Positions 836 through 25,686 of a stretch of 64,000 nucleotides of DNA are shown in pieces. The position numbers were made by a program, and so were the translations under genes. The DNA lies in NCBI GenBank assembly GCA_003518105.1, contig DOZH01000008.1:122128-186127 (forward strand), read 5' to 3'. A model generated the notes under the pieces. It searched no databases. It saw only the letters and a program-made list of their open reading frames with translations, and was not told where the DNA came from. Positions within the stretch are counted from its first letter, which is position 1, and each line of letters starts with the position of its first letter. The DNA is from Candidatus Uhrbacteria bacterium (GTDB taxonomy: Bacteria > Patescibacteriota > Patescibacteriia > UBA9934).

Positions 836-3490
836 ATGATGCCTAACAACTTCACCAGTAAATCTAATCAGGCCATGCAGGCTGCTCAAATGATCGCAGC
901 GGATAACGGTCAGCACGGCATCGAGCCAATTCACCTCCTGGCCGCCTTATTGGCCGACGACGACGGCATGGTCATGACTATCCTAGCCAAGCTCGACGCC
1001 CCAATCGCCGCTATTCAAAACGACGTCGTACGGATGCTGGAGACCATCCCCCGTCACGCCAGCGTGGAGCAACCAATTCCGGGGCAGATTTTTTTGACGC
1101 CGCCGTTGGCTCACGTCTTAGAAAGCGCCATCACTCTTGCCAAACAATTTGGCGATGAGTACATCTCCACGGAGCATCTCCTCTTGGCTTTGCTGACCGA
1201 AAAGATGACCGGTGGCTTGCTGCATAACCATAGCCTGAAGGCGGAGGACATTCTGCGCACACTCAAGGAAATTCGCGGCAACGACAAGGTGAATACCCCA
1301 GACCCAGAAAAGAAAACGCAGTCAATCGAGAAGTTCAGTATTAACATGACGGAACTGGCACGTCAGGGTAAATTGGACCCGGTCATTGGCCGCGATGAAG
1401 AAATTCGTCGCGTCATGCAGGTCCTGTCCCGCCGCACAAAAAATAATCCTGTACTCATTGGTGAAGCAGGTGTTGGTAAAACAGCGATTATTGAAGGCCT
1501 AGCCCAACGCGTGATTGCCGGCGACGTGCCAGAGTCGCTTAAAGAAAAAGAAATCGTCAGCCTCGACTTGGGTGCCATGGTTGCTGGTACCAAGTTCCGT
1601 GGCGAGTTCGAGGAACGCCTCAAATCTGTCGTCAACGAAATTAATGCCAGCAACGGTAAGATTATTTTGTTCATAGATGAGCTGCATATGTTGGTTGGCG
1701 CAGGTCATGGCGAGGACGCGCCGATGGACGCTAGCAACTTGCTCAAACCAGCCTTGGCTCGTGGCGAAATTCGCGTTGTCGGTGCCACTACCACTAAGGA
1801 ATACCAAAAGCACATTGAGAAGGATCAAGCTCTAGAACGACGCTTTCAGCCGATCATGGTGAATGAACCAAGTGTGGACGACACCATTGCTATTCTCCGT
1901 GGCATCAAGGAACGCTACGAAATTCACCACGGTGTACGTATTTCGGACAACGCCATCGTGGCTGCTGCCGAGCTCTCCACTCGTTACATCACCGACCGTC
2001 AGTTGCCAGACAAAGCTGTCGACCTCATTGATGAAGCAGCCTCTGCCCTGCGCTTACAAATTGACTCCATGCCAGAGGAATTGGACCGCTTGAAGCGTGA
2101 CGAAATGCGTTTACAAATTGAACGTCAAGCCCTCTTAAAGGAAGAGGACAAAGCCTCCAAAGCACGCTTAAAAGAAATTGAGCGTCAAATTGCGGACTTA
2201 AAGGAACAATCCGGCGCCCTGGAAATTGCCTGGAACTCGGAGAAGCAGTTGATTGAAGGTATTCGCGCCGCCAAAAACGACATGGACAAGCTCATCAATG
2301 AGGCAGAGTTTGAAGAACGTCGCGGCAATTTGCAGCGCGTGGCAGAAATTCGATACGGGCAAATTCCTAACAAACGCGAAGCTCTAAAAAAGACGGAAGC
2401 TGACTTAAAAGTCTTACAGCAGCAGCGTGGTTTGTTGAAAGAAGTTGTCGGCGAGGAAGACATCGCCGCCGTGGTTGGCCGCTGGACGCACATTCCGGTC
2501 TCAAAAATGTTGGAGGGTGAATTAACCAAGCTGGCTCGCATGGAAGACGCCCTCAAAAAGCGCGTTATCGGACAAGAAGAAGCTATTCACGCCGTCAGCA
2601 ATGCGCTCCGTCGTTCTCGCGCTGGCATTAGCGAAGAAAATCGCCCGATTGGCAGCTTCATCTTCATGGGCCCAACCGGCGTCGGTAAAACTGAACTCGC
2701 CAAAGCACTCGCCGAGTTCATGTTCAACGACGAGAAAGCCCTCGTCCGCCTGGACATGAGCGAATACATGGAGCGTCACAGTATGAGTAAAATGGTTGGT
2801 TCTCCACCAGGTTATGTTGGCTACGACGAAGCTGGCCAGTTAACTGAGAAAATCCGCAAACACCCTTACTCCGTGGTGCTGTTCGACGAAATTGAAAAGG
2901 CCCACCCCGACGTTTTCAACCTCCTCTTGCAAATCCTAGACGATGGTCACATCACGGACGCCAAGGGTCGCAAAGTCAACTTCAAGAACACGGTGATCAT
3001 CATGACGAGCAACATTGGTTCCGACGCTATTTTAAGCAATCAACAGCGCTCCAGCCTTGGCTTCCACGACGGCACCGTCACCGCGGATGACTCGACCAAA
3101 GGCAAAGTTCTCGAGTTATTGAAGGAACACTTCCGCCCAGAGTTTTTAAACCGTATTGACGAGACGATTGTCTTCCAGGCGCTGACACAGGAGCAAATTG
3201 CGGAGGTGGTCGAGCTGCAACTCGCCATCGTCGGCAAGCGCCTGATAACCGAGCGTGGTATTGGCCTCAAGGTGACGGAAAAGGCCAAAAAGCTTCTGGC
3301 CTTGCGCGGTTACGACCCGCAGTACGGCGCCCGTCCGTTAAAGCGTGTCATTCAGTCCATGATCCTCGATCCGCTAGCCATGAAAATCATCACTGGCGAT
3401 ATCCGTGACAGCGCCGCCCTCACCATCGACGCCAACAAGAAGGAAGAGATTGAGATTAGAAGCAAAGAATTAGTGGGTAGTAGAAAGTAG
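836..3490 (+). CDS. clpB: ATP-dependent chaperone ClpB (884 aa)
   Basis: Clp N-domain, two AAA+ modules with GEAGVGKT and GPTGVGKT Walker A motifs, and a long coiled-coil middle domain. Confidence 0.95.
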
Positions 3491-11452: not shown

Positions 11453-12934
11453 CTACAATCCCTTCAACACCCGATAAATCTCCACCATCGCCCAAGTGTC
11501 GAGCGCGCAGTAGTCGAGCAAATCGCGTTTAATCTTCTCCTTATCACTGGCCGACGTCGACGCTAAGATGAGCTTCTCCCAACGCTCACTCGCCTGGTCG
11601 CCCTTGCTGATGTTCATCACACTGTAATTGAGCTCGGGAACGAGTACTGGCAAAACTTTTTTAATACTTGCACTCCCCTTAAAAGCCGGGTCGACGTAAT
11701 AGCCATCAGAAAAAATCGTCATCAAGTCGAACATCTTGTCATTAATTTCTTTCAAGAACGAGGCGTGCTCAGGATGCAGTTCAGCTAGCTTATCGTTACG
11801 CTGCTTCTCATAACTACTATACCAACTGATTACCGTCCCGTTAGGATCGAGGTCGAGCTTCATCCTTTCAATAAGTGGCAAGGTCAAATCACCCTCGGGC
11901 TCGGTGATGAGAAACTCACGATGCTCAATCTCCCCATCTGCTCCCATGATGTGGAGCGAGTATTGGAAAGGAATTTGCTCATACGCTCCAAAGCCGTCGA
12001 ACATGGGAATGGCACTCGAGTAGCCCTCGTAATCAAAGAACTGCAAAGGGAACACCAAGCCGCCGAGCGCCTCTTTAATGGCCCCATAGTCGATGATGGC
12101 CTTCCCGAGCACATAAGACTCATACTGCAACTTTTGCGCCGCATTCAAGTCTTCTGGATTGTGAATGTCCGTCAACGCCAACTCCCCCCGGTCCACCCAA
12201 TCAATCAACTTCTTCTTGCTCATGCCAATCCGGTTGAAATTGTGCACTGAATACTCGGGCACTTCAGGATTGGAATACGCAAAAGTGGAGCAGTGATTAC
12301 TCCTCCCCTCGTACACGCAAGCGCAACCCTTTTCCTCCGGCAACGTCAAACACTCCTTCATCTGCATCATCTCCCCCTTTACCTGCTCTTCCGCCGCCGT
12401 CACTTCACCCGTCAAATCAGATTCGATGAATAACTCACAATTCACCACCTTGCCATTTTTACGATATTCACGATTCAAATGAATGACGCCGGTCTTAACT
12501 ACTTTCACCCCACACGCCTCAATGACAATTTTCTGAAAAGCCAAGTCGTTGACGTGGTGATGCGGCACTTTACGCTTCACCTCATTCGTCGCTTTCACCT
12601 CCCATAACTCCCAACCGCCGAGCTCTACATTAAAACACAAAATATCCGCCCGTAAGTAAAATACGTCCTCCTGGAACGTCGCCTGAAAAATAGTCTTCTT
12701 CTCCTCCATGACCTTCTTAGTATCAATCACCGCTTGGCCATGATGTGATTCGACGAGCACGCCTTCTGGATAAAGGAGTCTACAAGCCGCCTCTGCCAAG
12801 TTACCATCCTCGATAATCTTCTTCTCAAAGTCGCTAAACTCCACATCTACAAATAACTCGGGCTTATGCTTACGCAGCCACAGGTTCTTGCGACAAAATG
12901 TATATTCCAGGTAATCGGTTTTGGTGATGAGCAT
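11453..12934 (-). CDS. PD-(D/E)XK nuclease-superfamily protein (DUF2779-like, 493 aa)
   Basis: A D..ELWEVK motif (ADILCFNVELGGWELWEVKATN) typical of RecB-like PD-(D/E)XK nucleases. Length and N-terminus resemble the DUF2779 family. This is a by-eye call. Confidence 0.45.
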   Translation of the reverse strand: MLITKTDYLEYTFCRKNLWLRKHKPELFVDVEFSDFEKKIIEDGNLAEAACRLLYPEGVLVESHHGQAVIDTKKVMEEKKTIFQATFQEDVFYLRADILCFNVELGGWELWEVKATNEVKRKVPHHHVNDLAFQKIVIEACGVKVVKTGVIHLNREYRKNGKVVNCELFIESDLTGEVTAAEEQVKGEMMQMKECLTLPEEKGCACVYEGRSNHCSTFAYSNPEVPEYSVHNFNRIGMSKKKLIDWVDRGELALTDIHNPEDLNAAQKLQYESYVLGKAIIDYGAIKEALGGLVFPLQFFDYEGYSSAIPMFDGFGAYEQIPFQYSLHIMGADGEIEHREFLITEPEGDLTLPLIERMKLDLDPNGTVISWYSSYEKQRNDKLAELHPEHASFLKEINDKMFDLMTIFSDGYYVDPAFKGSASIKKVLPVLVPELNYSVMNISKGDQASERWEKLILASTSASDKEKIKRDLLDYCALDTWAMVEIYRVLKGL

Positions 12935-12936
12935 AG

Positions 12937-13317
12937 CTATAGAGTTTTAAGGTATTCAACAATTCTTGCGCGATCCTCATTAGCTTTATCTCCCTTAAAG
13001 TATATTTCTATATATAAAAAGGTTAGAGAAGTTTCGTGATAGGCGTAAATAACTCGTATCGCATGATTTCGCAGGCTTCGACATGATAATCGTGATTTAA
13101 TAATTGTGACTTCATTCGCCTTCTGTAGTATCGAGAAATTATTGCCAGTTCCTAATGGATACTGCTCCAACAAGATTTGGAGTCTGCCTAGATCTTCAAC
13201 CAAGCTTGGGTATTTCTTATTTAGTCTTTTAAACTCTCGAGAAAACTCTGGCAGTTCTCTAAAGTTGGTCATATTCCCCAACCGAAGTTTCCACCGGTCG
13301 ATAAAAGACGAACTCAT
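12937..13317 (-). CDS. RelE/ParE-superfamily-like toxin candidate
   Basis: The C-terminal pattern RVIYAYHE..LTFLYIEIYFKGD resembles RelE/HigB toxins. An alternative ATG at 13272 (MTNFRELPEF) would overlap the upstream gene by only 14 nt. Confidence 0.45.
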   Translation of the reverse strand: MSSSFIDRWKLRLGNMTNFRELPEFSREFKRLNKKYPSLVEDLGRLQILLEQYPLGTGNNFSILQKANEVTIIKSRLSCRSLRNHAIRVIYAYHETSLTFLYIEIYFKGDKANEDRARIVEYLKTL

Positions 13318-14143
13318 AATCTAACACCTGCCTATCCTTAGCAATAAACCACGGCGTATCCTTATGCGATAAAGCCGAAATCTGCGCTGCTGTCATGTCT
13401 GACAATCTATTGAGCTCCCAATCAATATGAGCTATCTCCATGCCAGATAATTCCGTCAAGCTAATAGCTTCATTCGGGTTAACTAAATACTTAGTTTGGT
13501 CGTATTTATAAAACTTACTCTTAATAGTTTCGAGCTTACCCGATTCCTCCAACTCCTGAATTATCTTAGCAAAGATAACTGGCGTCGGCCCATGCGTATT
13601 TTTAATATAACGAGCACCAATCAGCTGCTCGTCATACTTTTCGTAATAATCGAAGTCAATAAAATACAAAATTTTGTAAAGAGTAGTTTGGCCGACATTC
13701 GGTTTACCCCCAATTTTCAACAAAATATACAACAAAACTTGTTTGAACTTCTCGACTCTCTCCTGCGGCACCGAAATTCTATCCTCAGCAACAACTACAG
13801 GCTTAGTTTCATTCTTATTCGACTTGGTTTGCATTACCTCATGGCAGACAACCTTACCAGCTCTAATATCCTCAAACGAAATATCAAAAATCTGACTCAA
13901 TACTTCCGCCTCCCCGAAAGTGAGCTCTCTTTTTCCCTGTTCAAAGGCAATATAACTCGAGCGCGAAATCTCGAGTCTCTCCGCCACCTCCAATTGTGAC
14001 CAGCCTCGCTCTAACCGCAGCTTTTTGATAAGTGGACAATATAGTTTAGACATAACTAAAGTGTAGCTTTTTAATGTCGTAATGTCAAACAGTTCAATGT
14101 GTGGATAATTGACACTATCATCAAATCTCACTCCTTTAAGCAA
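13259..14143 (-). CDS. HTH-XRE plus DUF4065/Panacea (SocA-like) domain protein, putative antitoxin
   Basis: N-terminal XRE helix-turn-helix (LRLERGWSQLEVAERLEISRSSYIAFEQG), then a central region (GKPNVGQTTLYKILYFIDFDYYEKYDEQLIGARYIKNTHGPTP) matching the Panacea/DUF4065 signature. Confidence 0.55.
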   Translation of the reverse strand: MLKGVRFDDSVNYPHIELFDITTLKSYTLVMSKLYCPLIKKLRLERGWSQLEVAERLEISRSSYIAFEQGKRELTFGEAEVLSQIFDISFEDIRAGKVVCHEVMQTKSNKNETKPVVVAEDRISVPQERVEKFKQVLLYILLKIGGKPNVGQTTLYKILYFIDFDYYEKYDEQLIGARYIKNTHGPTPVIFAKIIQELEESGKLETIKSKFYKYDQTKYLVNPNEAISLTELSGMEIAHIDWELNRLSDMTAAQISALSHKDTPWFIAKDRQVLDYEFVFYRPVETSVGEYDQL

Positions 14144-14145
14144 TC

Positions 14146-14604
14146 CTACAACTCCACATATTCCTCTGTACTTGTGTCCTCCTGATTATACGCCAAGTCG
14201 TCACTATCAGCGTCGACGTTGGGCGAGGCGGCCTGGTTCACCTGGCCAGTGCTGACTGCCGTCTGTAACGCCTTTGTAGCCCACAGCCGAAAATGCGTAG
14301 CCACAGCCGGCTTGGTGCGATAGCCCACGGAGATAATCGCATCAAGATTGTAGAACTGCGTATTGTACTTTTTCCCATCCTTTGCAGTTATCCGGTATTT
14401 CCGGATAACTGTATTCTGGCTAAGCTCAGCAGTTTTGAATATATTCTGCAAATGCTCATTCACCGTCCGCACATCCACCCCGAACAAACCCGCCATCATC
14501 TTCTGACTCAACCACACACTCCCCAGCTCCACGCGTACCTGAATGCGGCCTGCGCCATGAGGAGAGGTGTAGAGGATCTTTGGTGTTGTTGATAACTTTG
14601 ACAA
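14146..14604 (-). CDS. RhuM-family protein, N-terminal-domain-only fragment (152 aa), apparent TTG start; possibly a gene remnant
   Basis: It aligns by eye to the N-terminal 120 residues of the full-length RhuM paralog at 23804-24820 (VWL.Q.QMA.LF, YNLD.IISVGYR, FR.WAT). It then diverges and stops, with only 2 nt before the next gene. Confidence 0.5.
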   Translation of the reverse strand: MSKLSTTPKILYTSPHGAGRIQVRVELGSVWLSQKMMAGLFGVDVRTVNEHLQNIFKTAELSQNTVIRKYRITAKDGKKYNTQFYNLDAIISVGYRTKPAVATHFRLWATKALQTAVSTGQVNQAASPNVDADSDDLAYNQEDTSTEEYVEL

Positions 14605-14705
14605 AAAGCAAAATTTCTGGAATAATTTAGTTGGAAGTGCCTCATATCCGAACTGTAGCGTTTATCGCTGCGTTCCCGAAAGGGATAGGATATGAGGCTT
14701 TTGTT

Positions 14706-15338
14706 TTATAACGAAGGCCAGGTTTGTACAAAAATTTCTCTGTGAGCTATTAGCCGACGGAACTCGTCTGATCTCGACTGCCCGCTCTGAACAGAACGAC
14801 AAGTAATACTGGCCGTATAATCTGCTAATTGCAATAAGTTATTACTTTGCGACCTTTGCATCTTAACTTTTCTAATAACTGATTCTCCAGTATTTCCTTT
14901 AACTTTTTGTCGCAGATAACGAGCTAACTGTTGCTGAAAATCATCTCCACTACTTTCATCGATCACCACAATAGCCTCAGAAATTCTTCCCTTGGCATTT
15001 TCAAATACTAAACCACAGACGTACTTATAGAATGAGCTCTTGTTCTTGAATCCTTCTCCGTATAATTTGTCCTTATTGATAACAATTCCGTAATAGAAGA
15101 ATCCATAAGGCCCTACCGCCTCTAAAAATGCCTTGCGTACCCTCGCTGAATTACGCTTAAAGTGAAATTCCTGACCAGCTCTCCACCCGAGTTCACGTTT
15201 CAATAACTCTATCCTCTGATCACAAGCTGTAGCCTCGTCGCTATCCCAAAATGCCACCAAAGAAATACCAAAATATTTGCTCGACCCAGCGGCCAGCTTC
15301 AGACCAGTATCTCCAGATTCATCAATAAAAACCAACAT
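14706..15338 (-). CDS. DUF3800 domain protein (210 aa)
   Basis: N-terminal LVFIDESGD and C-terminal LLQLADY are the hallmark ends of DUF3800. Confidence 0.55.
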   Translation of the reverse strand: MLVFIDESGDTGLKLAAGSSKYFGISLVAFWDSDEATACDQRIELLKRELGWRAGQEFHFKRNSARVRKAFLEAVGPYGFFYYGIVINKDKLYGEGFKNKSSFYKYVCGLVFENAKGRISEAIVVIDESSGDDFQQQLARYLRQKVKGNTGESVIRKVKMQRSQSNNLLQLADYTASITCRSVQSGQSRSDEFRRLIAHREIFVQTWPSL

Positions 15339-15445
15339 GAGAGCTTATCAATAACTTTTCTATTATATCAAGACAGGGTGACGTTCGACTATAATTCCAA
15401 ACAACTCCTCCCATCTGCCTTTGACTCAACCACGAAACTTAACAG

Positions 15446-16135
15446 TTATCTCAACTCAACCGGTGCCAAACCATTCAAAGCCTTATGAGGGAAATAGTTC
15501 CAAGCATTCGTTACTAGCTCTATAGCGTCACCCAAGTCAATCTTCCGACCACCATCATCAAATATAGCTAGAATATCAGTCATGTCGTCTGTCTCTTCCT
15601 CATTATAAATCATGTCTTTAATCTCCTGTAGTGTATGGCCACCTTCAACCAATTCAAGCATATCAAGTAGGTCATGCTCAATCAAAACACGCTGCTTAAT
15701 AATTTGCTTTTGTGATAATTTACGACTTGAACTCTTTACCTGCAACGGCGACTTAACTACCGGTGGTATATCAAGTTTCGCCATGACAAATTCATGCAAT
15801 CCAATCAACATATCTTCACACTCCTTGGCTCGCTTAGCAGCTCTAGCTAGCACAACCTCACCGGTATATTCTTCAAGAAAAGCACAAGTCACAAAACCTT
15901 CCTTTTCTCCGCAATCCTCTGCTTGATCTAGTAATTGCTGCACCTCTTCGTCATCCTTGAATAATACTCGATGCTTCTTAATTAGATTAAATGTTAAAGG
16001 ATTGAGGTCAATTTCCACAGTTATAAAAACTCTGCTAACAGCGTCTCCCCATATTCGTGTTTCGGTAATCAACCTTACCTGAGAATATGGCTTATCGCCC
16101 CACATTTCATCTTTTTGCTGTTGTGTTAGTGTCAT
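15446..16135 (-). CDS. hypothetical protein (229 aa), acidic, no recognised domain
   Basis: ORF track entry. It sits on the same strand within the AT-rich island. Confidence 0.45.
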   Translation of the reverse strand: MTLTQQQKDEMWGDKPYSQVRLITETRIWGDAVSRVFITVEIDLNPLTFNLIKKHRVLFKDDEEVQQLLDQAEDCGEKEGFVTCAFLEEYTGEVVLARAAKRAKECEDMLIGLHEFVMAKLDIPPVVKSPLQVKSSSRKLSQKQIIKQRVLIEHDLLDMLELVEGGHTLQEIKDMIYNEEETDDMTDILAIFDDGGRKIDLGDAIELVTNAWNYFPHKALNGLAPVELR

Positions 16136-16220
16136 ATTTAACTTAAATAAATTCTTAATCTATTCCTCAGATAAAGCATCAAATCTCTTCAACTCCTCGT
16201 TAAATGCCGCCCTCATCTCC

Positions 16221-16610
16221 TTAATTAATAGTCATCGGTGCGTCTTGATCAACCTTAACATGCCCATTTTCTAAACACCAACTATAACACTGCAAAATCG
16301 CTCTAGCTAATCGTCGAATTCTATCATTACCACACAGCATCTTACGTGGTAAAAAATAACTAATAAAATCAGCAAAAAATACTCCATCCAAAAACTCAGC
16401 ACTAAAATACTCTGTGAATCTCTCCCCTTTAAACTCACTCCTTTCAAATGTCTCCAACTCTTCATCTTCCAAGAAATCGGTGCAGTAACCGTCACAATAA
16501 TCCTCAAACAATCCCACGGCATCTTGATGACAAGCTAAAACCGCCAGACTTGAAACTTTAGCCCGTGCTTCTAGATATTCCAGCAAAACATCATGAATTG
16601 TTTTATCCAT
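16221..16610 (-). CDS. hypothetical protein (129 aa)
   Basis: ORF track entry. It is Cys-containing and acidic, with no recognised domain. Confidence 0.4.
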   Translation of the reverse strand: MDKTIHDVLLEYLEARAKVSSLAVLACHQDAVGLFEDYCDGYCTDFLEDEELETFERSEFKGERFTEYFSAEFLDGVFFADFISYFLPRKMLCGNDRIRRLARAILQCYSWCLENGHVKVDQDAPMTIN

Positions 16611-16617
16611 AAATTAG

Positions 16618-17070
16618 TTAATTAACTTCTTTAGTTTCTCGATTCCATTGCTCAATATCAATTTTCCCAGTGTGCCGCTTCTCCTCCCCCTGTATAATAT
16701 AGTTAATTATTTGAGGTATCTCTCCATTTATTGTTAAATGCAAAACCAAACCTATTCCTCCCGGCAGTAATGGATTAGCATGTTTATAGATTAAACGACC
16801 GGAATGCCCAACTATAAAATCGCCAGATATAAGACTAACTGAACCTAAGTCTAAATTCAATAGAGGGGTGTGAAGAGCAGTTCTTCCTTCGTTAACTAGA
16901 AAAAAAGTTAGAGTAACTTGATTTATTGTCCTGGTATCGGTTGCTTTTAATTTAAGTGATGGTTTAGGTAATTGATAATATGAGAATGCCAGCTGACCGA
17001 TAAAAACCGCTACGCCGACCAACAGTGGAGCCAATAAAAATTCTGCAATCCACTCCATAGCACCAAACAT
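16618..17070 (-). CDS. hypothetical membrane-anchored protein (150 aa)
   Basis: One N-terminal transmembrane helix (LLAPLLVGVAVFIGQLAF). It is separated from the upstream gene by 7 nt and from the downstream gene by 7 nt. Confidence 0.4.
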   Translation of the reverse strand: MFGAMEWIAEFLLAPLLVGVAVFIGQLAFSYYQLPKPSLKLKATDTRTINQVTLTFFLVNEGRTALHTPLLNLDLGSVSLISGDFIVGHSGRLIYKHANPLLPGGIGLVLHLTINGEIPQIINYIIQGEEKRHTGKIDIEQWNRETKEVN

Positions 17071-17076
17071 AAAATC

Positions 17077-18942
17077 TTAAACCAACCCCATCATCTCCCC
17101 AAACGCCTGGGACAGCTTCCACTTCTTCGTGGTATCGACAGCGCGGTGTAAGCCAATAAAACGGGTATCCTTGAATTTAGTTAGCTCCTCTACCGTATCC
17201 TCATGCAAATCAGCATCCAAGCAGACAATTGCCGTCCTATCGCCATCAGTCACCCTCCACACCACGTTACGAGTGAACTCCGGCAACTGCTCCTTCTGCA
17301 TGGTCAGCATAAAGCCCTGCTTCACCAAAGTCTCATACAACAAATCCGTCTCTTTACCCTCCGGTGTAAACATCAACTGCTGCTTAGCTCGCGCCAAATG
17401 TTCTTCAAACGCCTGTACGTTCTCTTCGTCCGTCTTCTCAGGATCCGACTCAAAATTATTCTCTGGGAAGACGCTAGTCGTCAACTTGAATACCTTAAAC
17501 CCAATATCAACCTCTGGCTTCTCAGCCTTAATCCTCTCCCCGGCCCTTTTAGCCCGTTCAATCGTAATACTGGAAATCTTTTTATACCCCGCTTTATACG
17601 CCTCACTATCCTCAGCGATCGCCTCAGGGATCTGCACCAAAATAAACTGCCTATTCCCACCATCTTCTTTATTCAATTCCATCACCGCCTGTGCTGTCGT
17701 ACCCGAACCTCCGAAGAAATCTACAACAAGATCTGATACATCAACGTTAGCGAGAGTTAATAATCTTGTAATTAACCTTACTGGTTTCGGGCCATCAAAA
17801 TTAACGCTATCATTAAATAGTTGCTTCACCTCTTTCGCTCCCTCCTGGCTATGGCCGACATCTTTATAAAATAATATTGAGGTTGGCGTCATTCCTTCTC
17901 TAACCTCCGACAAAAATCTTTTTATGGAAGGTACACTATTTCCGTCCTTGCCGAACCAAATTCGATTGTCTTCGAGTCTCTCAAAAAATGCATTTTTTGA
18001 GAGACTCCAGCAGCGCGCTGCTGGAGGCTCTACAACTCTTCCCGAGGGAGTAGTTATAGGATAGTCATTGTTAGCGCTATAAGTTTTTACCGACATGTCA
18101 CTAGCCTTCCATGCGCCACGAGGATCATTATCTAGATTCTGATAACGATCATTGGCTTCTTGAGAACGCTCTAATTTTCCTACCGTAAAGTCGGGAATAC
18201 TTTTTGCGTACATCAATACATAATCGTGGCTGTTAGAAATGTACTTGGCATCATTTTTCGGAGCATAAGCCCTCTCCCAAATCAATTGACTAACAAAATT
18301 TTCCATTCCAAACACCTCATCCATCAACTTCCTCAAATTATGCACTTCATTATCATCAATGCTGACAAAAATCACCCCGTCGTTTTTGAGTATCATCTGC
18401 GCCAAGAGTAAACGTGGCATCATCATGTTGAGCCAGTTGGTGTGATAGCGTCCGGCGCTTTCCGAGTTAGTGTCCACCTTTACGCCATCGCGGAACACGC
18501 CATTCTTCTCCCAATAAGCCTGCTTGCCTTCGGAGTAGTCGTCGGAGTAAACAAAATCATGGCCAGTGTTATAAGGAGGATCGATATAAATACACTTCAC
18601 CTTATTGTAATAGGCTTTGGATAGCAATTTAAGCACTTCCAAGTTCTCCCCCTCGATGATAACGTTCTTGGTCTCGTCGAAGTTCACACTACGCTCAAAG
18701 TCTGGCGCTAGACGGGCCTTACTACTCGTAAAGGCGTTCTTCTTAGCCTGCATCTTCCCTGGCCATTTGAACTCAAACTTTTCGCCTAACGACAAATCGT
18801 AGTTATGCGCCAAGGCATGGATCTCATCAATGCTGATTAGTCCCTCATCCGTAAACAAATCTGGATACAGCTTTTTAATTACTGCCAATCTTTCTTCACG
18901 CCAATCAGGTGAGGTAATATTTTTAGTGATTTCGTTATTCAT
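17077..18942 (-). CDS. mod: Type III restriction-modification methyltransferase (Mod), N6-adenine, beta class
   Basis: Motif IV DPPY (IYIDPPYNTG) precedes a C-terminal motif I FFGGSGTTAQA. The size is about 620 aa, and it sits next to a Res-like helicase-nuclease. Confidence 0.85.
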   Translation of the reverse strand: MNNEITKNITSPDWREERLAVIKKLYPDLFTDEGLISIDEIHALAHNYDLSLGEKFEFKWPGKMQAKKNAFTSSKARLAPDFERSVNFDETKNVIIEGENLEVLKLLSKAYYNKVKCIYIDPPYNTGHDFVYSDDYSEGKQAYWEKNGVFRDGVKVDTNSESAGRYHTNWLNMMMPRLLLAQMILKNDGVIFVSIDDNEVHNLRKLMDEVFGMENFVSQLIWERAYAPKNDAKYISNSHDYVLMYAKSIPDFTVGKLERSQEANDRYQNLDNDPRGAWKASDMSVKTYSANNDYPITTPSGRVVEPPAARCWSLSKNAFFERLEDNRIWFGKDGNSVPSIKRFLSEVREGMTPTSILFYKDVGHSQEGAKEVKQLFNDSVNFDGPKPVRLITRLLTLANVDVSDLVVDFFGGSGTTAQAVMELNKEDGGNRQFILVQIPEAIAEDSEAYKAGYKKISSITIERAKRAGERIKAEKPEVDIGFKVFKLTTSVFPENNFESDPEKTDEENVQAFEEHLARAKQQLMFTPEGKETDLLYETLVKQGFMLTMQKEQLPEFTRNVVWRVTDGDRTAIVCLDADLHEDTVEELTKFKDTRFIGLHRAVDTTKKWKLSQAFGEMMGLV

Positions 18943-18951
18943 ATAGGCCTA

Positions 18952-21642
18952 TTAATCCGCCAAAATATTACTAGCTTTCATTTCTTCGACTCTCGAGACA
19001 TCAACCAACGGCGGGAAAGTTTCAGTCACGTAGTAATCTTCTAAACCTATCGCCTTAAAGTGAGCAATCGCACAAGCAATCTTTGCTCGCTCATCTTCGT
19101 CAAGACGAGGCTGACCCGCGTCAAAGCCCTTAGTCTCAACCACAAAGCTGTATTTAGTCGAAACTTCGTCATCTAGCGTTTTCTTCTCAATTACCAATGC
19201 CCAGTCTGGATTATAGTCACCTGCTGGCGTTTTAATTTTATACCACTCTGGCAATTTGATAAAACACCGCACTCTATTCTCATTATCTATCTCCTGACCA
19301 AACCTCTCTTCAATTCTGCTATCAAACACCACATGATCATAAACTCCGTGCTGGACCGGCAGAACGTCTTGTCTCGTCTCAAACATTTCTTTGAATTCGG
19401 ACTTATCCCAAGACTCATTCAGCGCCTCATAACTCACACAACGCACCATAGTTTGCTTAACAATCTTCTTAGCCGCAAGAGTCGCTTTCGCCAAAAAAGC
19501 TACTGGATTCTTGGCCACTTTCTTCTTATCTTTCATGCCGGCCAAAATCTGCTGCACTGCACTTTCAGACAAGGTCGACTCATCAGCAAGTTCTGAGACT
19601 AGATTAATCTTGCTAGCTGACATCCCACCAACTTCTATTGCGCTCTCACCAATATATTCACTGGCAATCGAAGTTTCTCCAGCTTTACCTACAGTAAAAT
19701 TAATTCTACCTAACTTAGTCTGTAACATTGGCTTAGGTACAGACATCTTATCCAGTTCACGGATACACTCGCTAATCAAAAGATTTTCATCAAAATGAAC
19801 AGTAAACTTAGTCTTACGCGAAATCACCTCCCATAAACGATCAAAATCACTGCTCTCAAAAACCGCTTCATTACGCTTAACCGTGGTCGCTACCTTGCGA
19901 GCGTCCACAATTTTCAAGTCTTTAGCCACATCTCCATATTCAACTGCCAATTCGGCTTGATATTGTGCCACAAAGCCCTCATAACTTTGATTAGGAATAA
20001 CCGTCAACACGTTGACCGGCAAACCTTCTTCTAGTTTTTCCGGGTCCCTTACTCGATTACCAGTCTGGTCGACACAAATACGCAAACCACGTCCAATCTC
20101 TTGGCGTTTCTGAATGGCACTTTGCGTCTCATTCAAAGTACAAATGTTAAAAATATTTGGGTTGTCCCAACCTACACCCAATGCCGAGTGCGAAAAAATA
20201 AACTCTAAAGGCTCAGCAAAACTAAGCAATCGCTCCTTATCACGCATGATCAAATCGAACACTTCGGCATTCTTACTCATAGCTGACTCACTATCCGTCC
20301 ACTCACCCTTACCAGTCTTGGCGAAATAACCATTGTGAACTGTAGTTGTATTCATTGGGTACACTCCGTATTTCTTTTTATACTCATCACTATAAGCCTC
20401 AACAAATAAACGCCTAATCAAACCATTCTCATCCTGGTAATTAGCGACCCGATCAATAAAGAACAATGATAGAACTTTGATTCCTTGCTCTTGCAATTTT
20501 TCCTTCTTTTTAAAGTGCTGAACTACCGTCAAGCGAATCTGTTCTCTAAACACTGCCTCTTTATCCTCCCCGCGGCTGGCGCCCATCTTGAGTTCTTCAC
20601 CATTGGTAAAACGAACTCGAGCTATTTCGTCATTCATGTCTTTCCAAATTCTCTCCACTACCCAACCATCATAAACCAAATTATTGGTCTTTACCGCCAA
20701 ATCCGTATCCTTACCTACTTTAATATTTTTCAACTTAAACTCTCCTCCCGCTAATCTCACCATTACCTCGAGCGTAGCAGCTGGTTGCTTGCCAGCTACA
20801 AAATCAACACTCTTGATCGCAATATTCGCCGAGCTCTCCGTATTCTGCTCATGTACGGATAATACCTCAACCTGCTTAACCAATTTCTTACTATACGCAT
20901 CAAACGGCGTCAGTTGATAAATCAAATTCTTAAGCACTTTATGCGTTGCCGAATAGCGTAACTTCAATATCGGCTTCAAGCCGTTCGCAATCTGCTCAGT
21001 CGCCTTGTCAGTGTCCATGCCCTTCTGGGGTTCATCGAGAATAATCACAGGCTGCACCTGTCCGATCAAATCGATTAGCCGTTCACCACCGTTGCTGTCT
21101 CGCAACTGATTGATAATCTTGTTCTCTCCCACAAAAGCCTGGGTATTCATGACCATGATCTGCAAATCACCCGACTGGGCATAACCGCGAACCATCGCCG
21201 GCTTCTTACTGTCATAAGCGAAAGCCCGGTAATTTACCCCATACAACGCTTTAAAATGCTCGCTAGCGCTCCGTAAGGTGGATAACACACCTTCCTTAAT
21301 AGCAATAGACGGCACGAGGATAATAAACTTGGACAAACCGTAAACTTTGTTCAGCTCAAAAATGGTTCGCAAATAAACATAAGTCTTACCAGTACCAGTC
21401 TCCATCTCGATTGAAAAATCCATGTCAGTCATGGCCTTAACCTCAATAATCCCGTTATTCTCAGCAATCCTATCCCTATTAGCCCAAATCTCCTCATCAC
21501 TAAGCCCAACCTTGTTGGCACAAACGCCTTCGAACAATCTCTCCTCAGGCCTAATATACGGCGCACCAGCAAATAGCCCCGTCACCGCCGCAATGGCATC
21601 GAGTTGGTACTGGAGGTTGGGTTCAAAGTGGAGTTTCAGCAT
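18952..21642 (-). CDS. res: Type III restriction enzyme Res subunit (SF2 helicase-nuclease, 896 aa)
   Basis: Walker A METGTGKTY and a DEPQ box (VIILDEPQKG), plus a C-terminal nuclease-like region. It lies 9 nt upstream of mod. Confidence 0.8.
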   Translation of the reverse strand: MLKLHFEPNLQYQLDAIAAVTGLFAGAPYIRPEERLFEGVCANKVGLSDEEIWANRDRIAENNGIIEVKAMTDMDFSIEMETGTGKTYVYLRTIFELNKVYGLSKFIILVPSIAIKEGVLSTLRSASEHFKALYGVNYRAFAYDSKKPAMVRGYAQSGDLQIMVMNTQAFVGENKIINQLRDSNGGERLIDLIGQVQPVIILDEPQKGMDTDKATEQIANGLKPILKLRYSATHKVLKNLIYQLTPFDAYSKKLVKQVEVLSVHEQNTESSANIAIKSVDFVAGKQPAATLEVMVRLAGGEFKLKNIKVGKDTDLAVKTNNLVYDGWVVERIWKDMNDEIARVRFTNGEELKMGASRGEDKEAVFREQIRLTVVQHFKKKEKLQEQGIKVLSLFFIDRVANYQDENGLIRRLFVEAYSDEYKKKYGVYPMNTTTVHNGYFAKTGKGEWTDSESAMSKNAEVFDLIMRDKERLLSFAEPLEFIFSHSALGVGWDNPNIFNICTLNETQSAIQKRQEIGRGLRICVDQTGNRVRDPEKLEEGLPVNVLTVIPNQSYEGFVAQYQAELAVEYGDVAKDLKIVDARKVATTVKRNEAVFESSDFDRLWEVISRKTKFTVHFDENLLISECIRELDKMSVPKPMLQTKLGRINFTVGKAGETSIASEYIGESAIEVGGMSASKINLVSELADESTLSESAVQQILAGMKDKKKVAKNPVAFLAKATLAAKKIVKQTMVRCVSYEALNESWDKSEFKEMFETRQDVLPVQHGVYDHVVFDSRIEERFGQEIDNENRVRCFIKLPEWYKIKTPAGDYNPDWALVIEKKTLDDEVSTKYSFVVETKGFDAGQPRLDEDERAKIACAIAHFKAIGLEDYYVTETFPPLVDVSRVEEMKASNILAD

Positions 21643-21705
21643 AGGTAGGAGGTTACTGCGAGGTATTCTAGCACATATTCAAGCAACTAGGCTGTGTAAG
21701 ATTAA

Positions 21706-22455
21706 TTAGATGAATATTTTTTTATTAAACAAATGATTCAGTATTTTTACCCCCTGGTCATATGGAATATGCGGGATCATTATTCTCCCCTCCTTAGTTA
21801 TAACAGTCTCACCAAATACTTCATCTGTGTTTTTGTTAGTAATATTATATATAAATACCCACCCACCAATCACTAATACATAGCCAATATTTTGATACTT
21901 CACCCCCGCTGACGGGACTCTGATTTCTCTCGGCTCACCAACAATCTCGCTCGGTAGATTTTGGTTATGGTAGCGGGAGAGCATGCATGGAAAGCTACCC
22001 AATTCACCGGCATTACCAGAATTGAGCATCTCTCTAATCGCCTCTTCATATTTGCCAAGCTTCACTTTAGCGAAAAAAGGTAAATTTGAAATACTTGCTC
22101 TCCATAATAATGAGAGACAAAAGAGCTTAAATTTTGTATAATCTAACCCGTTGATCACCGTATATTCTAACCCATCCTCCTTCCGAAAATAATTAACTTG
22201 AACCGGAGGAATTACTTCGTCGCAAAAGACAGTTTTCGCATAAGTTTCATATTGGTTAATGACTTCATTATCGCATTTTGCACAAAGTATATCGGCCTCA
22301 TGTAAACCACTTTGAACGAATTTTGACCTATAGTTCTGTAATGATAAATTAACAAGTCGATGCTTGTCATCGTACATTTGTGTATATAAAAAATCTGACC
22401 AAATGTGAGACTTTTTTAAGAGCACGGTCTCTTTTAAACATAATCGACATTGCAT
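21706..22455 (-). CDS. Cys-rich putative zinc-binding protein, possibly HNH-like (249 aa)
   Basis: CRLC..KSHIW then CAKCDNE gives a C-x2-C ... H ... C-x2-C-D-N spacing reminiscent of HNH/zinc-ribbon nucleases. This is a weak call. Confidence 0.35.
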   Translation of the reverse strand: MQCRLCLKETVLLKKSHIWSDFLYTQMYDDKHRLVNLSLQNYRSKFVQSGLHEADILCAKCDNEVINQYETYAKTVFCDEVIPPVQVNYFRKEDGLEYTVINGLDYTKFKLFCLSLLWRASISNLPFFAKVKLGKYEEAIREMLNSGNAGELGSFPCMLSRYHNQNLPSEIVGEPREIRVPSAGVKYQNIGYVLVIGGWVFIYNITNKNTDEVFGETVITKEGRIMIPHIPYDQGVKILNHLFNKKIFI

Positions 22456-22470
22456 AATGCGACGCCTTAT

Positions 22471-23415
22471 TTAAAGACTTTGCTCGACCTCTTTAACATG
22501 CCTGGCAAAAACTCGTTTAAACGATGAAATATTCTTCAATAACCAATTGAAATAATCGATACGTCTATCCAAATCCTCCATAGAAAACTCATGGGAGATG
22601 ATAACCCTGGCAGCCTTAGCATGCTCGAGTCTTTGCCAATCTAGCTCCATGCCGATTTCCTTTTCTATCGCTGTTTTACGCTCTAACAAACCATCAAATA
22701 GTGGCTTATTATTAGAAATAAAAAGCTCGCAACTCATGATCTTTTTCTGCGAGCGAATAACCATCGTCACATGGGCCTTACTACTACCAATAGATACGTC
22801 CATATACGCCTGCGCGCGAGGTGACTGGAAGCGTATATCCTTATAATGCTCAACACCATACTCATGCAAAGCCGTCCAAAACTCAAGTTGACGAAGATTA
22901 CCTTCGCTTGGTTCACCTCTCCCAGAAGCATTCTTAATTGTCTTTGCCCATTCATTTGGACGACAAATAACATCAAATTTTGGTGCTGGCTTAGAGTCAC
23001 CAATTTGCCAAAGCTCGAGCTTTACAGCAAAAAAGTTCACTTCATCAGTAGTATGTTCATTAAGCCAGTCAATTGCTTGACGATGTTCCTCTCTAACCTC
23101 CTTAAAGATCCAAATTATATATCCTGCCCCATGTCCTGAGGCATACGTAATAAGCTTGCCAAGATGATCGTGGTCGGTGGTTTCAAGTTGATTTTCAATA
23201 ATAGCCTTGATGCCTGTTCCCTCTTCTTCTACAAGAATATCAACGTTAAAGTCACCTACGTTAGCCTCTGTTTGAATCAATAAAAGATCTAGTCCTAGCT
23301 CTTCTCCTAAAGCAGCTAGGTTGTCGGTCTCGGCTAGCCATCTTGTGAACTCTGGTTCAAATGGCCATACCCTCCGTAAATCAGTTTTAATAATATTTCC
23401 AAGATCAATTGTCAT
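22471..23415 (-). CDS. PD-(D/E)XK nuclease-like protein (DUF4268-like), about 314 aa from the internal ATG
   Basis: VGDFNVDILVEEEGTGIKAIIENQLETTDHDHLGKL contains a D..E.Q/K-type nuclease core. The start at 23415 avoids overlap with the upstream MazG gene; the ORF-track frame extends to 23487. Confidence 0.45.
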   Translation of the reverse strand: MTIDLGNIIKTDLRRVWPFEPEFTRWLAETDNLAALGEELGLDLLLIQTEANVGDFNVDILVEEEGTGIKAIIENQLETTDHDHLGKLITYASGHGAGYIIWIFKEVREEHRQAIDWLNEHTTDEVNFFAVKLELWQIGDSKPAPKFDVICRPNEWAKTIKNASGRGEPSEGNLRQLEFWTALHEYGVEHYKDIRFQSPRAQAYMDVSIGSSKAHVTMVIRSQKKIMSCELFISNNKPLFDGLLERKTAIEKEIGMELDWQRLEHAKAARVIISHEFSMEDLDRRIDYFNWLLKNISSFKRVFARHVKEVEQSL

Positions 23416-23425
23416 ATATAGAAAT

Positions 23426-23776
23426 TTATAATTCAGTATATTTAACCGCACTCCCCTTACTCTTCTCCACCGGATACTTCTCCCCATTCTTCACCAGCTT
23501 ACGCTCAAACGCCTGGCCGATGTCGATGCCGAGGTCGTGGGACATTAAGAGGACCCAGTACAGAACGTCGGCGAGTTCGTCGGCTACGTCTGACTGGTGG
23601 GTAATGAGATACTCGGTTAGAGCCTCGCCATTACGCCATTGGAAGTGTTCCAGTACCTCTGTCGCCTCCAGCTGGAGCGAGATGGCGCAATCCTTGGGAT
23701 TATGGAACTGCGCCCAGTTGCGAGCGTCACGGAACTTCACTACTTGGTCAGTCAGGTTGGCGATGGAGTCGGACAT
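23426..23776 (-). CDS. MazG-like nucleotide pyrophosphohydrolase (small all-alpha NTP-PPase, 116 aa)
   Basis: FRDARNWAQFHNPKD..EATEVLEHFQW..ELADVLYWVLLM..KNGEKYP matches the MazG/HisE-type NTP pyrophosphatase signature. Confidence 0.75.
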   Translation of the reverse strand: MSDSIANLTDQVVKFRDARNWAQFHNPKDCAISLQLEATEVLEHFQWRNGEALTEYLITHQSDVADELADVLYWVLLMSHDLGIDIGQAFERKLVKNGEKYPVEKSKGSAVKYTEL

Positions 23777-23803
23777 ATTATAGTTTACTAACTTTTTAGT
23801 ACT

Positions 23804-24820
23804 TTAGCCCACCTTATGCTCAACTATTCTCTGAACCTCCTTAATACTCTCTAAATACGCCTCCTCTACGGGCGAAAGTGTCTTAGCTTGATACTTACGG
23901 TATTCACTCGTCGCTTTGTCTACAGCTCGTTCGTGACTAATGGAGCCAGCGTCTTTCAGTGCACCTTTACCAAAATTCTCAGCAAATTTGTCTAGCTCGG
24001 CAATCCAGTCTACCATCCGCATTTTTTCATGTTCCTGTGCCTTAATTTCTGCTAAATCAAAGAAGGCGGAGACTAAACGGTTTAAACGAAAAAGTTCATC
24101 TTTAGTTAAATAATTTTTCGCAATTCTCACCTCCGCCAGCACCGGCATGGCCCCAGCAAAAGTCGTTAGGCCCATAAAATCCTTGGCAGCATCTGCACGT
24201 TCGTGAATAGTTTCGGCAGCCGTGTGTTGATTAGTTGCGTAGTGCAATTTATTTTGTACAACTTTAAAAAACGCTACCGACTCAGAACTCTGCGGGTTAT
24301 AATCTATGCTCGTAGCGTATAAATCGAGCACCTGACGGTAGAGGGCCTTCTCGCTCGAACGAATATCCCGAATACGCTCAAGCAGCTCTTTCCAATATTG
24401 TCCGCCACCATTGCCCTTGAGCCGTTCGTCGTCCATGGTGAAGCCCTTCACAATATACTCTCGCAAACGTGCCGTGGCCCACATGCGGAATTGTGTGCCT
24501 TGAACAGATTTTACGCGGTAGCCAACGGAGATAATAACGTCCAGGTTGTAAAGTTTGACCTCTGATGTCTGGGTTTTCCCCTCAATTGCACCGTGTTTAG
24601 TGGTTCGTCGGGAATTCCGACATACCACTTTTTCATCTAGTTCTTCTTCTTTAAAGATGTTTAAGATATGTTCGGCGACCGTGGATCGTCCTTTGTCAAA
24701 AAGTTCAGCCATCTGGTCTTGAGTAAGCCACACCGTCTCATTTTCAAGTCGTACCTCAAGCCTTGGGGCGCCGTTACCCCCTTCGTAGATAATTATTTCG
24801 TTGTTAGGTTTATTGACCAT
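23804..24820 (-). CDS. RhuM-family protein (full length, 338 aa)
   Basis: TVWLTQDQMAELF...YNLDVIISVGYRVKS..GTQFRMWAT plus the long helical C-terminal region typical of the Virulence_RhuM family. Confidence 0.75.
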   Translation of the reverse strand: MVNKPNNEIIIYEGGNGAPRLEVRLENETVWLTQDQMAELFDKGRSTVAEHILNIFKEEELDEKVVCRNSRRTTKHGAIEGKTQTSEVKLYNLDVIISVGYRVKSVQGTQFRMWATARLREYIVKGFTMDDERLKGNGGGQYWKELLERIRDIRSSEKALYRQVLDLYATSIDYNPQSSESVAFFKVVQNKLHYATNQHTAAETIHERADAAKDFMGLTTFAGAMPVLAEVRIAKNYLTKDELFRLNRLVSAFFDLAEIKAQEHEKMRMVDWIAELDKFAENFGKGALKDAGSISHERAVDKATSEYRKYQAKTLSPVEEAYLESIKEVQRIVEHKVG

Positions 24821-24824
24821 ATCA

Positions 24825-25649
24825 TTATTTTACGAGCTTCTTACCGGTAGACTTCACCTGTCGCTCCACCTTTTTCAAGTCTTCCTCTGCTGGTAAATTC
24901 TCCGGCTGAATGCCACTTTTCAGCAGTACCTCGCGGACGTTCTGATTATTCTTGATATGCTCCTCGGCTATTGGTTGCTCACCATATAACGCTCGTTCTT
25001 TCTTCACATTAAAACTAGTAATCTCGTTCGCCAAATCTTTCGCCTTAATCGTTACCGCTGGCAAAAAGTCGGCCAATGGACGTTTAGCGGGAATACCGAG
25101 CTTAGCCTTCATCTCTTGAGTACTATGACCACCAAATAATACATTATCGCCTTTGCTCTTAATTCGCGCTAAGCCAATATTATCAACCCCACGCTCAAAC
25201 AAAACGCCGGACAACTCTCTATCAGATTCGGTGAGCTTGTTACGAGCCTGTAATCGCTCCAAATCCGCCAAACGCTTGACGATGAGCTCCTGATTCCTCG
25301 TTTGTACCGCAAAGTAAGTCTGAGCAAAAGCAATCTCGTCTTTGCGAGGATCGCCATTCTGAGCAATGAGATAGCAAGCGTAACGGGTAAGCATAATATC
25401 TGCTACTTCCCGAGTTCCGCCATTCGGCATTGGGGATGATTTCGTGACGTCACGAAAATGATCATTCATTGGCTGTTTTGCCGTCTCACAAGCAATCCTC
25501 GCCTTTTTCAAGGCATTTTCGAAGTTCTCCCAACGTCCATAACCAAGCAAAGTCTGTAACTCACGCGCATACCAAAACTCAACCCCGTTCTCTTCGTGCA
25601 CACAATCCTCAAAATTCTTATGTAATGCAGTGATAACTTGGGGCTCCAT
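24825..25649 (-). CDS. dinD: DNA-damage-inducible protein D (DinD) homolog
   Basis: Collinear similarity to E. coli DinD (FWYARELQTLLGY..W.NF, LTRYACYLIAQNGDP, FAQTYFAVQTR, GSTELAANLFR-like segments). Confidence 0.8.
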   Translation of the reverse strand: MEPQVITALHKNFEDCVHEENGVEFWYARELQTLLGYGRWENFENALKKARIACETAKQPMNDHFRDVTKSSPMPNGGTREVADIMLTRYACYLIAQNGDPRKDEIAFAQTYFAVQTRNQELIVKRLADLERLQARNKLTESDRELSGVLFERGVDNIGLARIKSKGDNVLFGGHSTQEMKAKLGIPAKRPLADFLPAVTIKAKDLANEITSFNVKKERALYGEQPIAEEHIKNNQNVREVLLKSGIQPENLPAEEDLKKVERQVKSTGKKLVK

Positions 25650-25686
25650 ATTTGGTATAGTTAGATGAACCTCAATCTTACCACGT

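Follow-up and report, generated by a model that had tools for sequence, protein, structure and literature searches.

Pairs of a Panacea antitoxin (PanA) and a HigB-2/RelE/ParE-like toxin, namely T14, T28 and T59 by HHpred, are recorded in the portion of the PanAT toxin-antitoxin (TA) catalogue considered here (Kurata et al. 2022, PMC8832971), and the same work counts 343 PanAs with an N-terminal helix-turn-helix (HTH) domain. As far as that portion goes, these RelE-like cases come from methanogens, haloarchaea and proteobacteria, their PanAs are devoid of an N-terminal domain, and none of them was experimentally tested; there are no Patescibacteria in the portion of Dataset S1 considered. Here we present a locus of comparable layout from Candidatus Uhrbacteria, a member of the candidate phyla radiation (CPR), in which three consecutive minus-strand open reading frames (ORFs) code for the N-terminal domain of the RhuM family standing alone (RhuM-N), a PanA with an HTH and a predicted RelE-fold toxin. 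It lies at 12937-14604 of a 64,000-nucleotide stretch of DNA (positions 122,128 to 186,127 of contig DOZH01000008.1, assembly GCA_003518105.1), which we call the window. As in the PanAT catalogue, where the antitoxin and toxin genes in the considered portion of Dataset S1 overlap by -1 to -17 nt, the Panacea antitoxin gene lies directly upstream of, and overlaps with, that of a small RelE-fold toxin; it differs from the T14, T28 and T59 cases in its N-terminal HTH.

The best match of the toxin, by sequence profile as well as by structure, is HigB2 of the V. cholerae HigB2-HigA2 system (PDB 5ja8, 5ja9, 5jaa, 8a0x), with which it shares about 18% identity. HigA2 is comparable to PanA in that it carries an HTH and binds the operator, but it has no Panacea domain. 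Gene order is a further difference, since higBA operons usually have the toxin first, whereas the cassette in the window begins with the antitoxin. RhuM-N is homologous to the N-terminal ~120 residues of RhuM (PF13310; PDC-S05); the C-terminal domain of that family (profile positions ~60-252) is, however, absent from it, and a 30-residue acidic tail predicted to be disordered stands in its place. Its predicted fold (residues 6-122) is like that of the Bro-N/Ant domains of phage antirepressor and BRO proteins, although no sequence match to Pfam Bro-N was found. Finally, the succession of genes for a RelE/ParE-fold toxin, an antitoxin and a putative DNA-binding protein is reminiscent of the three-component paaR-paaA-parE system cited in PMC8832971; there the third gene and the pair are conserved together, whereas RhuM-N is absent from the other loci of the PanA-toxin pair (see below).

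We consider it probable that the locus is made up of two independent units side by side, an acquired TA cassette and an older resident gene for an N-only RhuM. The first unit (12937 to ~14116) would be an autonomous type II TA cassette of horizontal origin, and the second (14146-14604) an older resident gene combining the Bro-N-like RhuM N-domain with a conserved disordered acidic tail. The features concerned are as follows:

11453..12934, minus strand: gene for a DUF2779/Cas4-like nuclease (Pfam DUF2779; PADLOC Cas4 N-terminal match), the presumed resident right-hand flank

12937..13272, minus strand: gene for the predicted RelE/HigB2-fold toxin, 111 aa (MTNFRELPEF...), from a large family without a Pfam model

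13259..14053, minus strand: antitoxin gene PanA, 264 aa, with an XRE-type HTH at the N-terminus, a linker, a Panacea domain (DUF4065/SocA-like) and, at the C-terminus, a short conserved extension that ends in ..EYDQL

14054..14116, minus strand: putative promoter/operator of the TA operon, from a promoter scan and conservation across loci

14146..14604, minus strand: RhuM-N gene, 152 aa, TTG start, coding for the RhuM N-terminal (Bro-N-like) domain alone

14149..14238, minus strand: acidic C-terminal tail of RhuM-N, residues 123-152, predicted to be disordered (predicted local distance difference test score, pLDDT, 31-40), with the conserved end motif DDLAYNQEDTSTEEYVEL

In their longest forms the three ORFs span 14146-14604, 13259-14143 and 12937-13317, and all three are real genes of this CPR genome; a groundwater contig in ENA (L010) is identical to the window across the locus and adds no independent information. 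PanA matches both Pfam HTH_3 (48.1 bits) and SocA_Panacea (PF13274; 62.9 bits against a cut-off of 25.7, profile positions 1-112 of 113), bearing out the original prediction of a product that joins an XRE HTH to a DUF4065/Panacea domain. Against NF047745, the equivalog model of the type VI antitoxin SocA, it scores 19.9 bits, the cut-off being 190. The TTG at 14143, 2 nt after the RhuM-N stop codon, merely opens the longest form of the antitoxin ORF: the N-termini of homologs align with MSKLYCPLIKKLR.., that is, with ATG 14053, and the tblastn matches in the other loci of an 88-locus survey (see below) begin at residues 1-9 of the 264-aa form. By these alignments the antitoxin starts at ATG 14053 and not at TTG 14143. 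The RhuM-N gene had been said to stop 2 nt before its neighbor; with the start at 14053 the two are instead separated by a non-coding spacer of 92 nt (RhuM-N stop at 14146), and their ORFs lie in different reading frames. Given this start and a conserved promoter within the 92-nt gap, the translational coupling that had been proposed between RhuM-N and PanA falls away. The C-termini of the PanA family end in Y-x(1-3)-D-[EQP]-L (..VGEYDQL in the window, 13262-13282), and the end of the RhuM-N tail, EEYVEL (14149-14166), resembles this motif; the likeness may reflect a shared short motif (a degron or a binding peptide) or coincidence.

The toxin ATG at 13272, at which the N-termini of homologs align, gives an overlap of 14 nt with the antitoxin stop codon (13259-13261), as originally described. 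The identical 111-aa protein is listed at NCBI as a hypothetical protein of Cand. Uhrbacteria. Scans of Pfam, NCBIfam, PADLOC and PHROGs returned no match for it, and neither its sequence nor the family profile A1 had a meaningful match among PDB sequences; of 31 relatives recovered by a single-sequence search, three reach Pfam ParE_toxin (PF05016) weakly (E 0.024), and two relatives are named RelE by JGI. The AlphaFold2 (AF2) model computed from the family alignment (pLDDT 92.5) has the topology b-a-a-b-b-b-b-a, and ranks 1-37 of a Foldseek search of the PDB with this model are all occupied by toxins of the RelE/ParE superfamily, including V. cholerae HigB2, P. horikoshii RelE (aRelE), YoeB, E. 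coli RelE, YafQ and M. tuberculosis RelE/RelK, with template-modelling (TM) scores of up to 0.66 (query-normalised) or 0.75 (target-normalised) and probabilities of ~1.0. Moreover, the profile of the most divergent subfamily (A4) has HigB-2 chains as its five best PDB matches (E=0.01), in an alignment that covers the central strands ..KGKGxxxGxRxIYxxxxxxxxxxLxxIYxK... An hhalign comparison of A1 with an approximate E. coli RelE sequence gave a weak 22-column match (P 0.013), and the likewise approximate sequences of MqsR and RK2 ParE gave none. The structural model and the remote homology to HigB-2, rather than any curated sequence model, support the RelE/ParE fold that had been proposed for the third ORF; of the two folds expected from profile searches, Panacea was recovered in that way through SocA_Panacea and the toxin was recognised by structure and remote homology.

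The toxin family is large: a family profile recovers at least 6366 clusters at 90% identity, nearly all of them unnamed or hypothetical, and the family motif, confirmed by tblastn, occurs at 456 sites in GTDB species-representative genomes, mostly of Patescibacteria, with some in Brocadia, Nitrospira, Omnitrophota, Thermodesulfobacteriota and others. When 88 loci were surveyed with tblastn, an HTH-Panacea gene was found directly upstream of the toxin relative, on the same strand and ending within 150 nt, in every one of them, and five homolog-context look-ups agree with the survey on this pairing. The overlap of the two genes is usually 11 nt in the homolog loci, against 14 nt in the window. 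One criterion for a PanA in PMC8832971 is a conserved two-gene architecture with the partner within 100 nt in at least two species; the present pair is adjacent or overlapping in all 88 loci, which come from many phyla, among them Patescibacteria, Brocadia, Nitrospira and Omnitrophota. Judged from its sequence, the TA pair is probably a functional and ordinary PanA/RelE-fold module of an already known kind. In one of the loci (L003), a tRNA-Ser(tga) gene (3026-3109) stands ~130 nt upstream of the PanA start, consistent with a cassette in a tRNA-adjacent island.

The promoter scan places a -35 box TTGACA at 14088-14083 and, at a spacing of 17 nt, a -10 box TACACT at 14065-14060, which ends 6 nt ahead of ATG 14053. 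A TGTCAA at 14114-14109 forms with TTGACA an inverted repeat around and in the -35 box, and a further repeat, CGACAT, is located at 14079-14074. Of 14 homolog loci, 8 share the arrangement TTGAC[AT]-17-TAnnnT, located 6-8 nt 5' of the ATG. Across 13 loci of unrelated contexts, the 80 nt 5' of the PanA start show a mean column identity of 65%, with the consensus ATGTCAA..ATACA..TTTGACTTTCTGACAT..TAAnAT, and it is this conservation across loci, not the score of the scan, that lends weight to the promoter call. With so short a distance between the -10 box and the start codon, the mRNA would be leaderless; we infer an autoregulated promoter that makes such a transcript and travels with the cassette. 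On the same strand, a strong Shine-Dalgarno-like AAAGGAG (14137-14131) is found 9 nt before an out-of-frame ATG at 14121, which begins an ORF of 16 codons that crosses the PanA promoter/operator (14137-14071 for the whole feature); this could be a chance occurrence or a small upstream ORF.

Turning to the second unit, RhuM-N is, as had been noted, alignable with the N-terminal region of the full-length RhuM encoded 9 kb away (23804-24820, minus strand), with 44% identity over 117 aa. It scores 55.3 bits against Pfam Virulence_RhuM (PF13310; cut-off 33.7) at profile positions 2-59 of 252 only, where a full RhuM would extend over ~250 profile positions including the C-terminal region, and it has N-terminal matches to PADLOC PDC-S05. 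Protein searches of the ENA and Logan collections recovered the tailed form in three lineages, namely the window, the loci L008/L009 and the locus L091. The two orthologs, P0033 (147 aa, 61% identity, three contigs) and P0264 (153 aa, GTG start), have the same end point as RhuM-N and share with it the tail DDL(A/T)Y(N/S)QE(D/E)...EEYVEL. TTG is the only start codon available to RhuM-N, in agreement with the original prediction, and the L008 ortholog has an ATG at exactly the same place. A DNA pattern for the tail, with or without the terminal stop codon, had no matches in GTDB genomes and JGI metagenomes; by these searches the tailed form is rare. Between RhuM-N and the L008 ortholog the ratio of nonsynonymous to synonymous substitution rates (dN/dS) is ~0.25, and in the tail the nonsynonymous proportion (pN) is 0.165 against a synonymous one (pS) of 0.90, at which synonymous sites are saturated; on this measure RhuM-N is kept under purifying selection. 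Since its tail can be aligned with the linker between the RhuM domains (DDERLK..DYFEELL), RhuM-N looks like the descendant of a full-length RhuM that lost its C-terminal domain long ago.

The AF2 model of RhuM-N is folded over residues 6-122 with a disordered tail, and Foldseek matches it in BFVD to Bro-N, Ant-type antirepressor and repressor-domain proteins (E 3e-6 to 1e-3, probability 1.0); matches to the PDB are weak and of the winged-helix kind, and the RhuM profile has no match among PDB sequences. On the evidence of this model the fold is Bro-N-like. The same N-domain is found in other settings. It is fused to Fic/DOC, with the HPFVDGNKR motif, in L058 (3969-4976) and L071 (3841-4681; frameshifted), where each fusion gene follows, 0.5-0.9 kb downstream, a PanA-toxin pair belonging to the same family; such fusions to Fic/DOC effectors have already been noted (PMC3710099). 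A 133-aa RhuM-N-only protein, P0065, occurs on 15 contigs (L094-L096) in a phage-like region, where its gene is divergent from an operon with an ERF recombinase; this arrangement suggests that phages, too, use the RhuM N-domain as a regulator on its own.

Upstream of RhuM-N, a DUF3800-IX RNA (RF02968; 62.4 bits against a gathering threshold of 36.8, E 3e-12, fold z-score -4.8) is located at 14639-14702 on the plus strand, between the DUF3800 gene (14706-15338, minus strand) and the RhuM-N start and on the opposite strand to both. The RNA is preceded by a near-consensus promoter-like site on its own strand (14598-14626, TTGACA-17-AATAAT with TG, 11/12), which overlaps the TTG start codon of RhuM-N. 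The function of DUF3800 RNA motifs is unknown (PMC5737381).

The two units differ in composition and in what surrounds them. The GC content at third codon positions (GC3) is 0.62 for RhuM-N (0.70 for its tail), 0.62 for the DUF2779 gene (Pfam DUF2779, 127.5 bits) and 0.61 for an ABC transporter; it is 0.46 for PanA, 0.33 for the toxin and 0.37 for DUF3800, and total GC is 0.33 in the spacer that separates PanA from RhuM-N. The composition of the TA cassette is foreign relative to RhuM-N, and RhuM-N is host-like. At the right-hand junction of the cassette, the toxin stop codon and the DUF2779 ATG are 2 nt apart. In L008/L009 the DNA homology to the window extends as far as the stop codon of RhuM-N and is found again from the ATG of DUF2779 onwards; the slot between them is occupied by two unrelated low-GC3 genes of 69/81 aa and 175 aa (in L008, GC3 of 0.32-0.34 for this cargo, 0.54 for RhuM-N and 0.65 for DUF2779). 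L008, like L009, further has the 5' end of DUF2779 as a direct repeat of 90 nt (566-655 and 1988-2077, 93% identity) that brackets RhuM-N together with the two-gene cargo; the left copy is 88% identical to the start of the window DUF2779 gene, and a small tandem duplication (GAGTTATTTGA) is seen at the junction. The repeat looks like a scar left where a cassette was inserted or exchanged in the RhuM-N/DUF2779 slot; no such repeat of the DUF2779 5' end is present upstream of RhuM-N in the window. On the simplest interpretation, RhuM-N and DUF2779 are resident genes on either side of a slot into which different small modules have been taken up. Low-GC two-gene cargoes would then differ by lineage, and the TA cassette would be the cargo of the Uhrbacteria lineage. 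No family match was found for the L008 cargo or for a 91-aa ORF in L091 (see below); a HEPN-like nature of the 175-aa protein in L008 and a RelE-like one of the 91-aa protein in L091 are unsupported.

Several observations weigh against this reading of two independent units and of the function of each. The promoter scan is at chance level, with 5 sites found in the region against 4.7 expected. No Pfam, NCBIfam or PADLOC model matches the toxin sequence significantly, and the Foldseek E-values of the toxin are modest (1e-3 to 1e-1), though the list of matches is uniform. RhuM-N has a TTG start and no visible Shine-Dalgarno sequence or promoter of its own in the window genome, and the 100 nt 5' of it are taken up by the opposite-strand DUF3800-IX RNA; for these reasons it may be poorly expressed. 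The tailed form is known from three lineages only, and in all three it adjoins a TA-like pair. In L091 (3-1019) the gap is as small as 1 nt: P0264 starts 1 nt after the stop codon of the 91-aa ORF, which itself shares 4 nt with an ORF cut off by the contig end; this truncated ORF has a weak C-terminal Panacea match (Pfam E 0.0047) and a pairwise similarity (E 0.005) to the window PanA motif LNR..D....Q...LSH.

This adjacency speaks for an alternative in which the N-only RhuM acts in trans with the neighboring TA pair as a third partner of accessory or regulatory function (e.g., as a sensor that binds DNA and has been split from its effector). A Panacea-like gene is part of two of the three neighboring pairs, the RhuM N-domain behaves as a module (fused to RhuM-C or Fic/DOC and also standing alone in phage-like contexts), and TA loci of three genes that include accessory ones have been described (PMC8832971). 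We nevertheless regard such a partnership as unlikely. A RhuM gene upstream of the PanA-toxin pair was found in none of the 87 loci outside the Uhrbacteria genome, and the RhuM-type genes of three of these loci are downstream of the pair and are full-length or DOC fusions; the three-component module that had been considered would have its third gene conserved with the pair, which these loci do not bear out. Gene order differs, with RhuM-N first in the window and last in L091, the toxins are not the same, the conserved promoter separates RhuM-N from PanA, and composition points to different residence times. Moreover, the partner genes in L008 are unrelated to PanA and RelE, and the whole comparison extends to three lineages, in one of which (L091) the Panacea match is weak and falls on a truncated ORF. 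With three instances, and with defence genes being packed into islands, a functional link of any kind between RhuM-N and the TA pair seems improbable to us. A more elaborate version, equally improbable, has the tailed RhuM-N as a detached Bro-N-like sensor or regulator working in trans with interchangeable toxin modules, and the junction between RhuM-N and DUF2779 as a dedicated cassette-exchange site of the CPR; RhuM-N would then be a split version of RhuM and RhuM-N-DOC, in which the N-domain is in cis with the effectors.

Returning to the TA cassette as an autonomous unit, we propose that a sigma-70-like promoter flanked by TGACA-type repeats would drive PanA (264 aa) followed by the toxin (111 aa), whose translation would be coupled to that of PanA through the 14-nt overlap. 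PanA would neutralise the toxin by binding it via the Panacea domain and/or the conserved C-terminal extension, and its HTH would repress its own promoter. Loss or triggering of PanA (e.g., by proteolysis or phage infection) would free the toxin, which would cleave mRNA on the ribosome and bring about growth arrest. The invariant residues of the toxin are basic and aromatic (K59, R73, Y76, Y91, K93, R103) and, as far as sequence can tell, compatible with mRNase activity; we take them to resemble the catalytic set of RelE, and in a local alignment with the approximate E. coli RelE sequence LRxxxxR(I/L)(I/V)Y falls at R61. The RelE/ParE fold supports both mRNase and gyrase-poison activity (PMC10440598), and the toxin might accordingly be a ParE-type gyrase poison, or else an inactive RelE-fold protein, instead of a ribosome-dependent mRNase. 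The three family members with weak Pfam ParE_toxin matches and the YoeB/ParE entries among the fold matches would fit such a protein; however, it is mRNases (HigB2, aRelE, YoeB, RelE and YafQ) that match the toxin best in sequence and fold, and with the basic and aromatic nature of the invariant residues this makes the alternative a doubtful one.

Least credible is a recent cut of a full-length RhuM by the TA insertion, with the 152-aa ORF as a decaying pseudogene fragment: RhuM-N does lack the RhuM C-domain and does have a TTG start with no Shine-Dalgarno sequence, its linker-like tail indicates an origin by C-domain loss, and short RhuM ORFs in databases often turn out to be parts of frameshifted genes (e.g., P0100, in which 144+54+128 aa add up to full length), but no C-terminal coding remnant is present around the locus (tblastn E<=10, the sole match being the full-length gene at 23.8 kb), lineages with other cargo have an identical end point and the tail as well, the dN/dS is 0.25 with the tail more constrained than synonymous sites, the GC3 of RhuM-N is host-like, unlike that of the cassette, and only 2 nt lie between the toxin stop codon and the DUF2779 start. 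Tailed orthologs of the same length (147 and 153 aa in L008/L009 and L091), which the original prediction itself had named as the kind of evidence that would speak against a truncation, do exist, and the insertion into RhuM that it had put forward is abandoned here.

The locus is situated at the edge of a low-GC island (~13000-25650; GC 0.37-0.46 against ~0.51 in the flanks), which also holds DUF3800 (14706-15338, minus strand), three unknown genes, DUF4268 and the following:

17077-18942 and 18952-21642: Mod and Res genes, respectively, of a type III restriction-modification system

23426-23776: MazG-like gene

23804-24820, minus strand: full-length RhuM gene

24825-25649: gene for a Bro-N protein, adjoining the full-length RhuM

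Within this island the MazG-like gene and RhuM-N stand out by their host-like GC3.

The value of the locus lies mostly in annotation, with the N-only RhuM as a modest curiosity: its N-domain appears to be Bro-N-like, separable and selected on its own together with a conserved acidic tail. The cassette brings with it a conserved candidate promoter/operator with an apparently leaderless transcript, which is directly testable. The PanAT catalogue would be extended to CPR bacteria, which are absent from the portion of the original survey considered here, and a large unannotated family of small proteins can be named as predicted RelE/HigB2-fold toxins that are, in the loci surveyed, invariably paired with an HTH-Panacea antitoxin.

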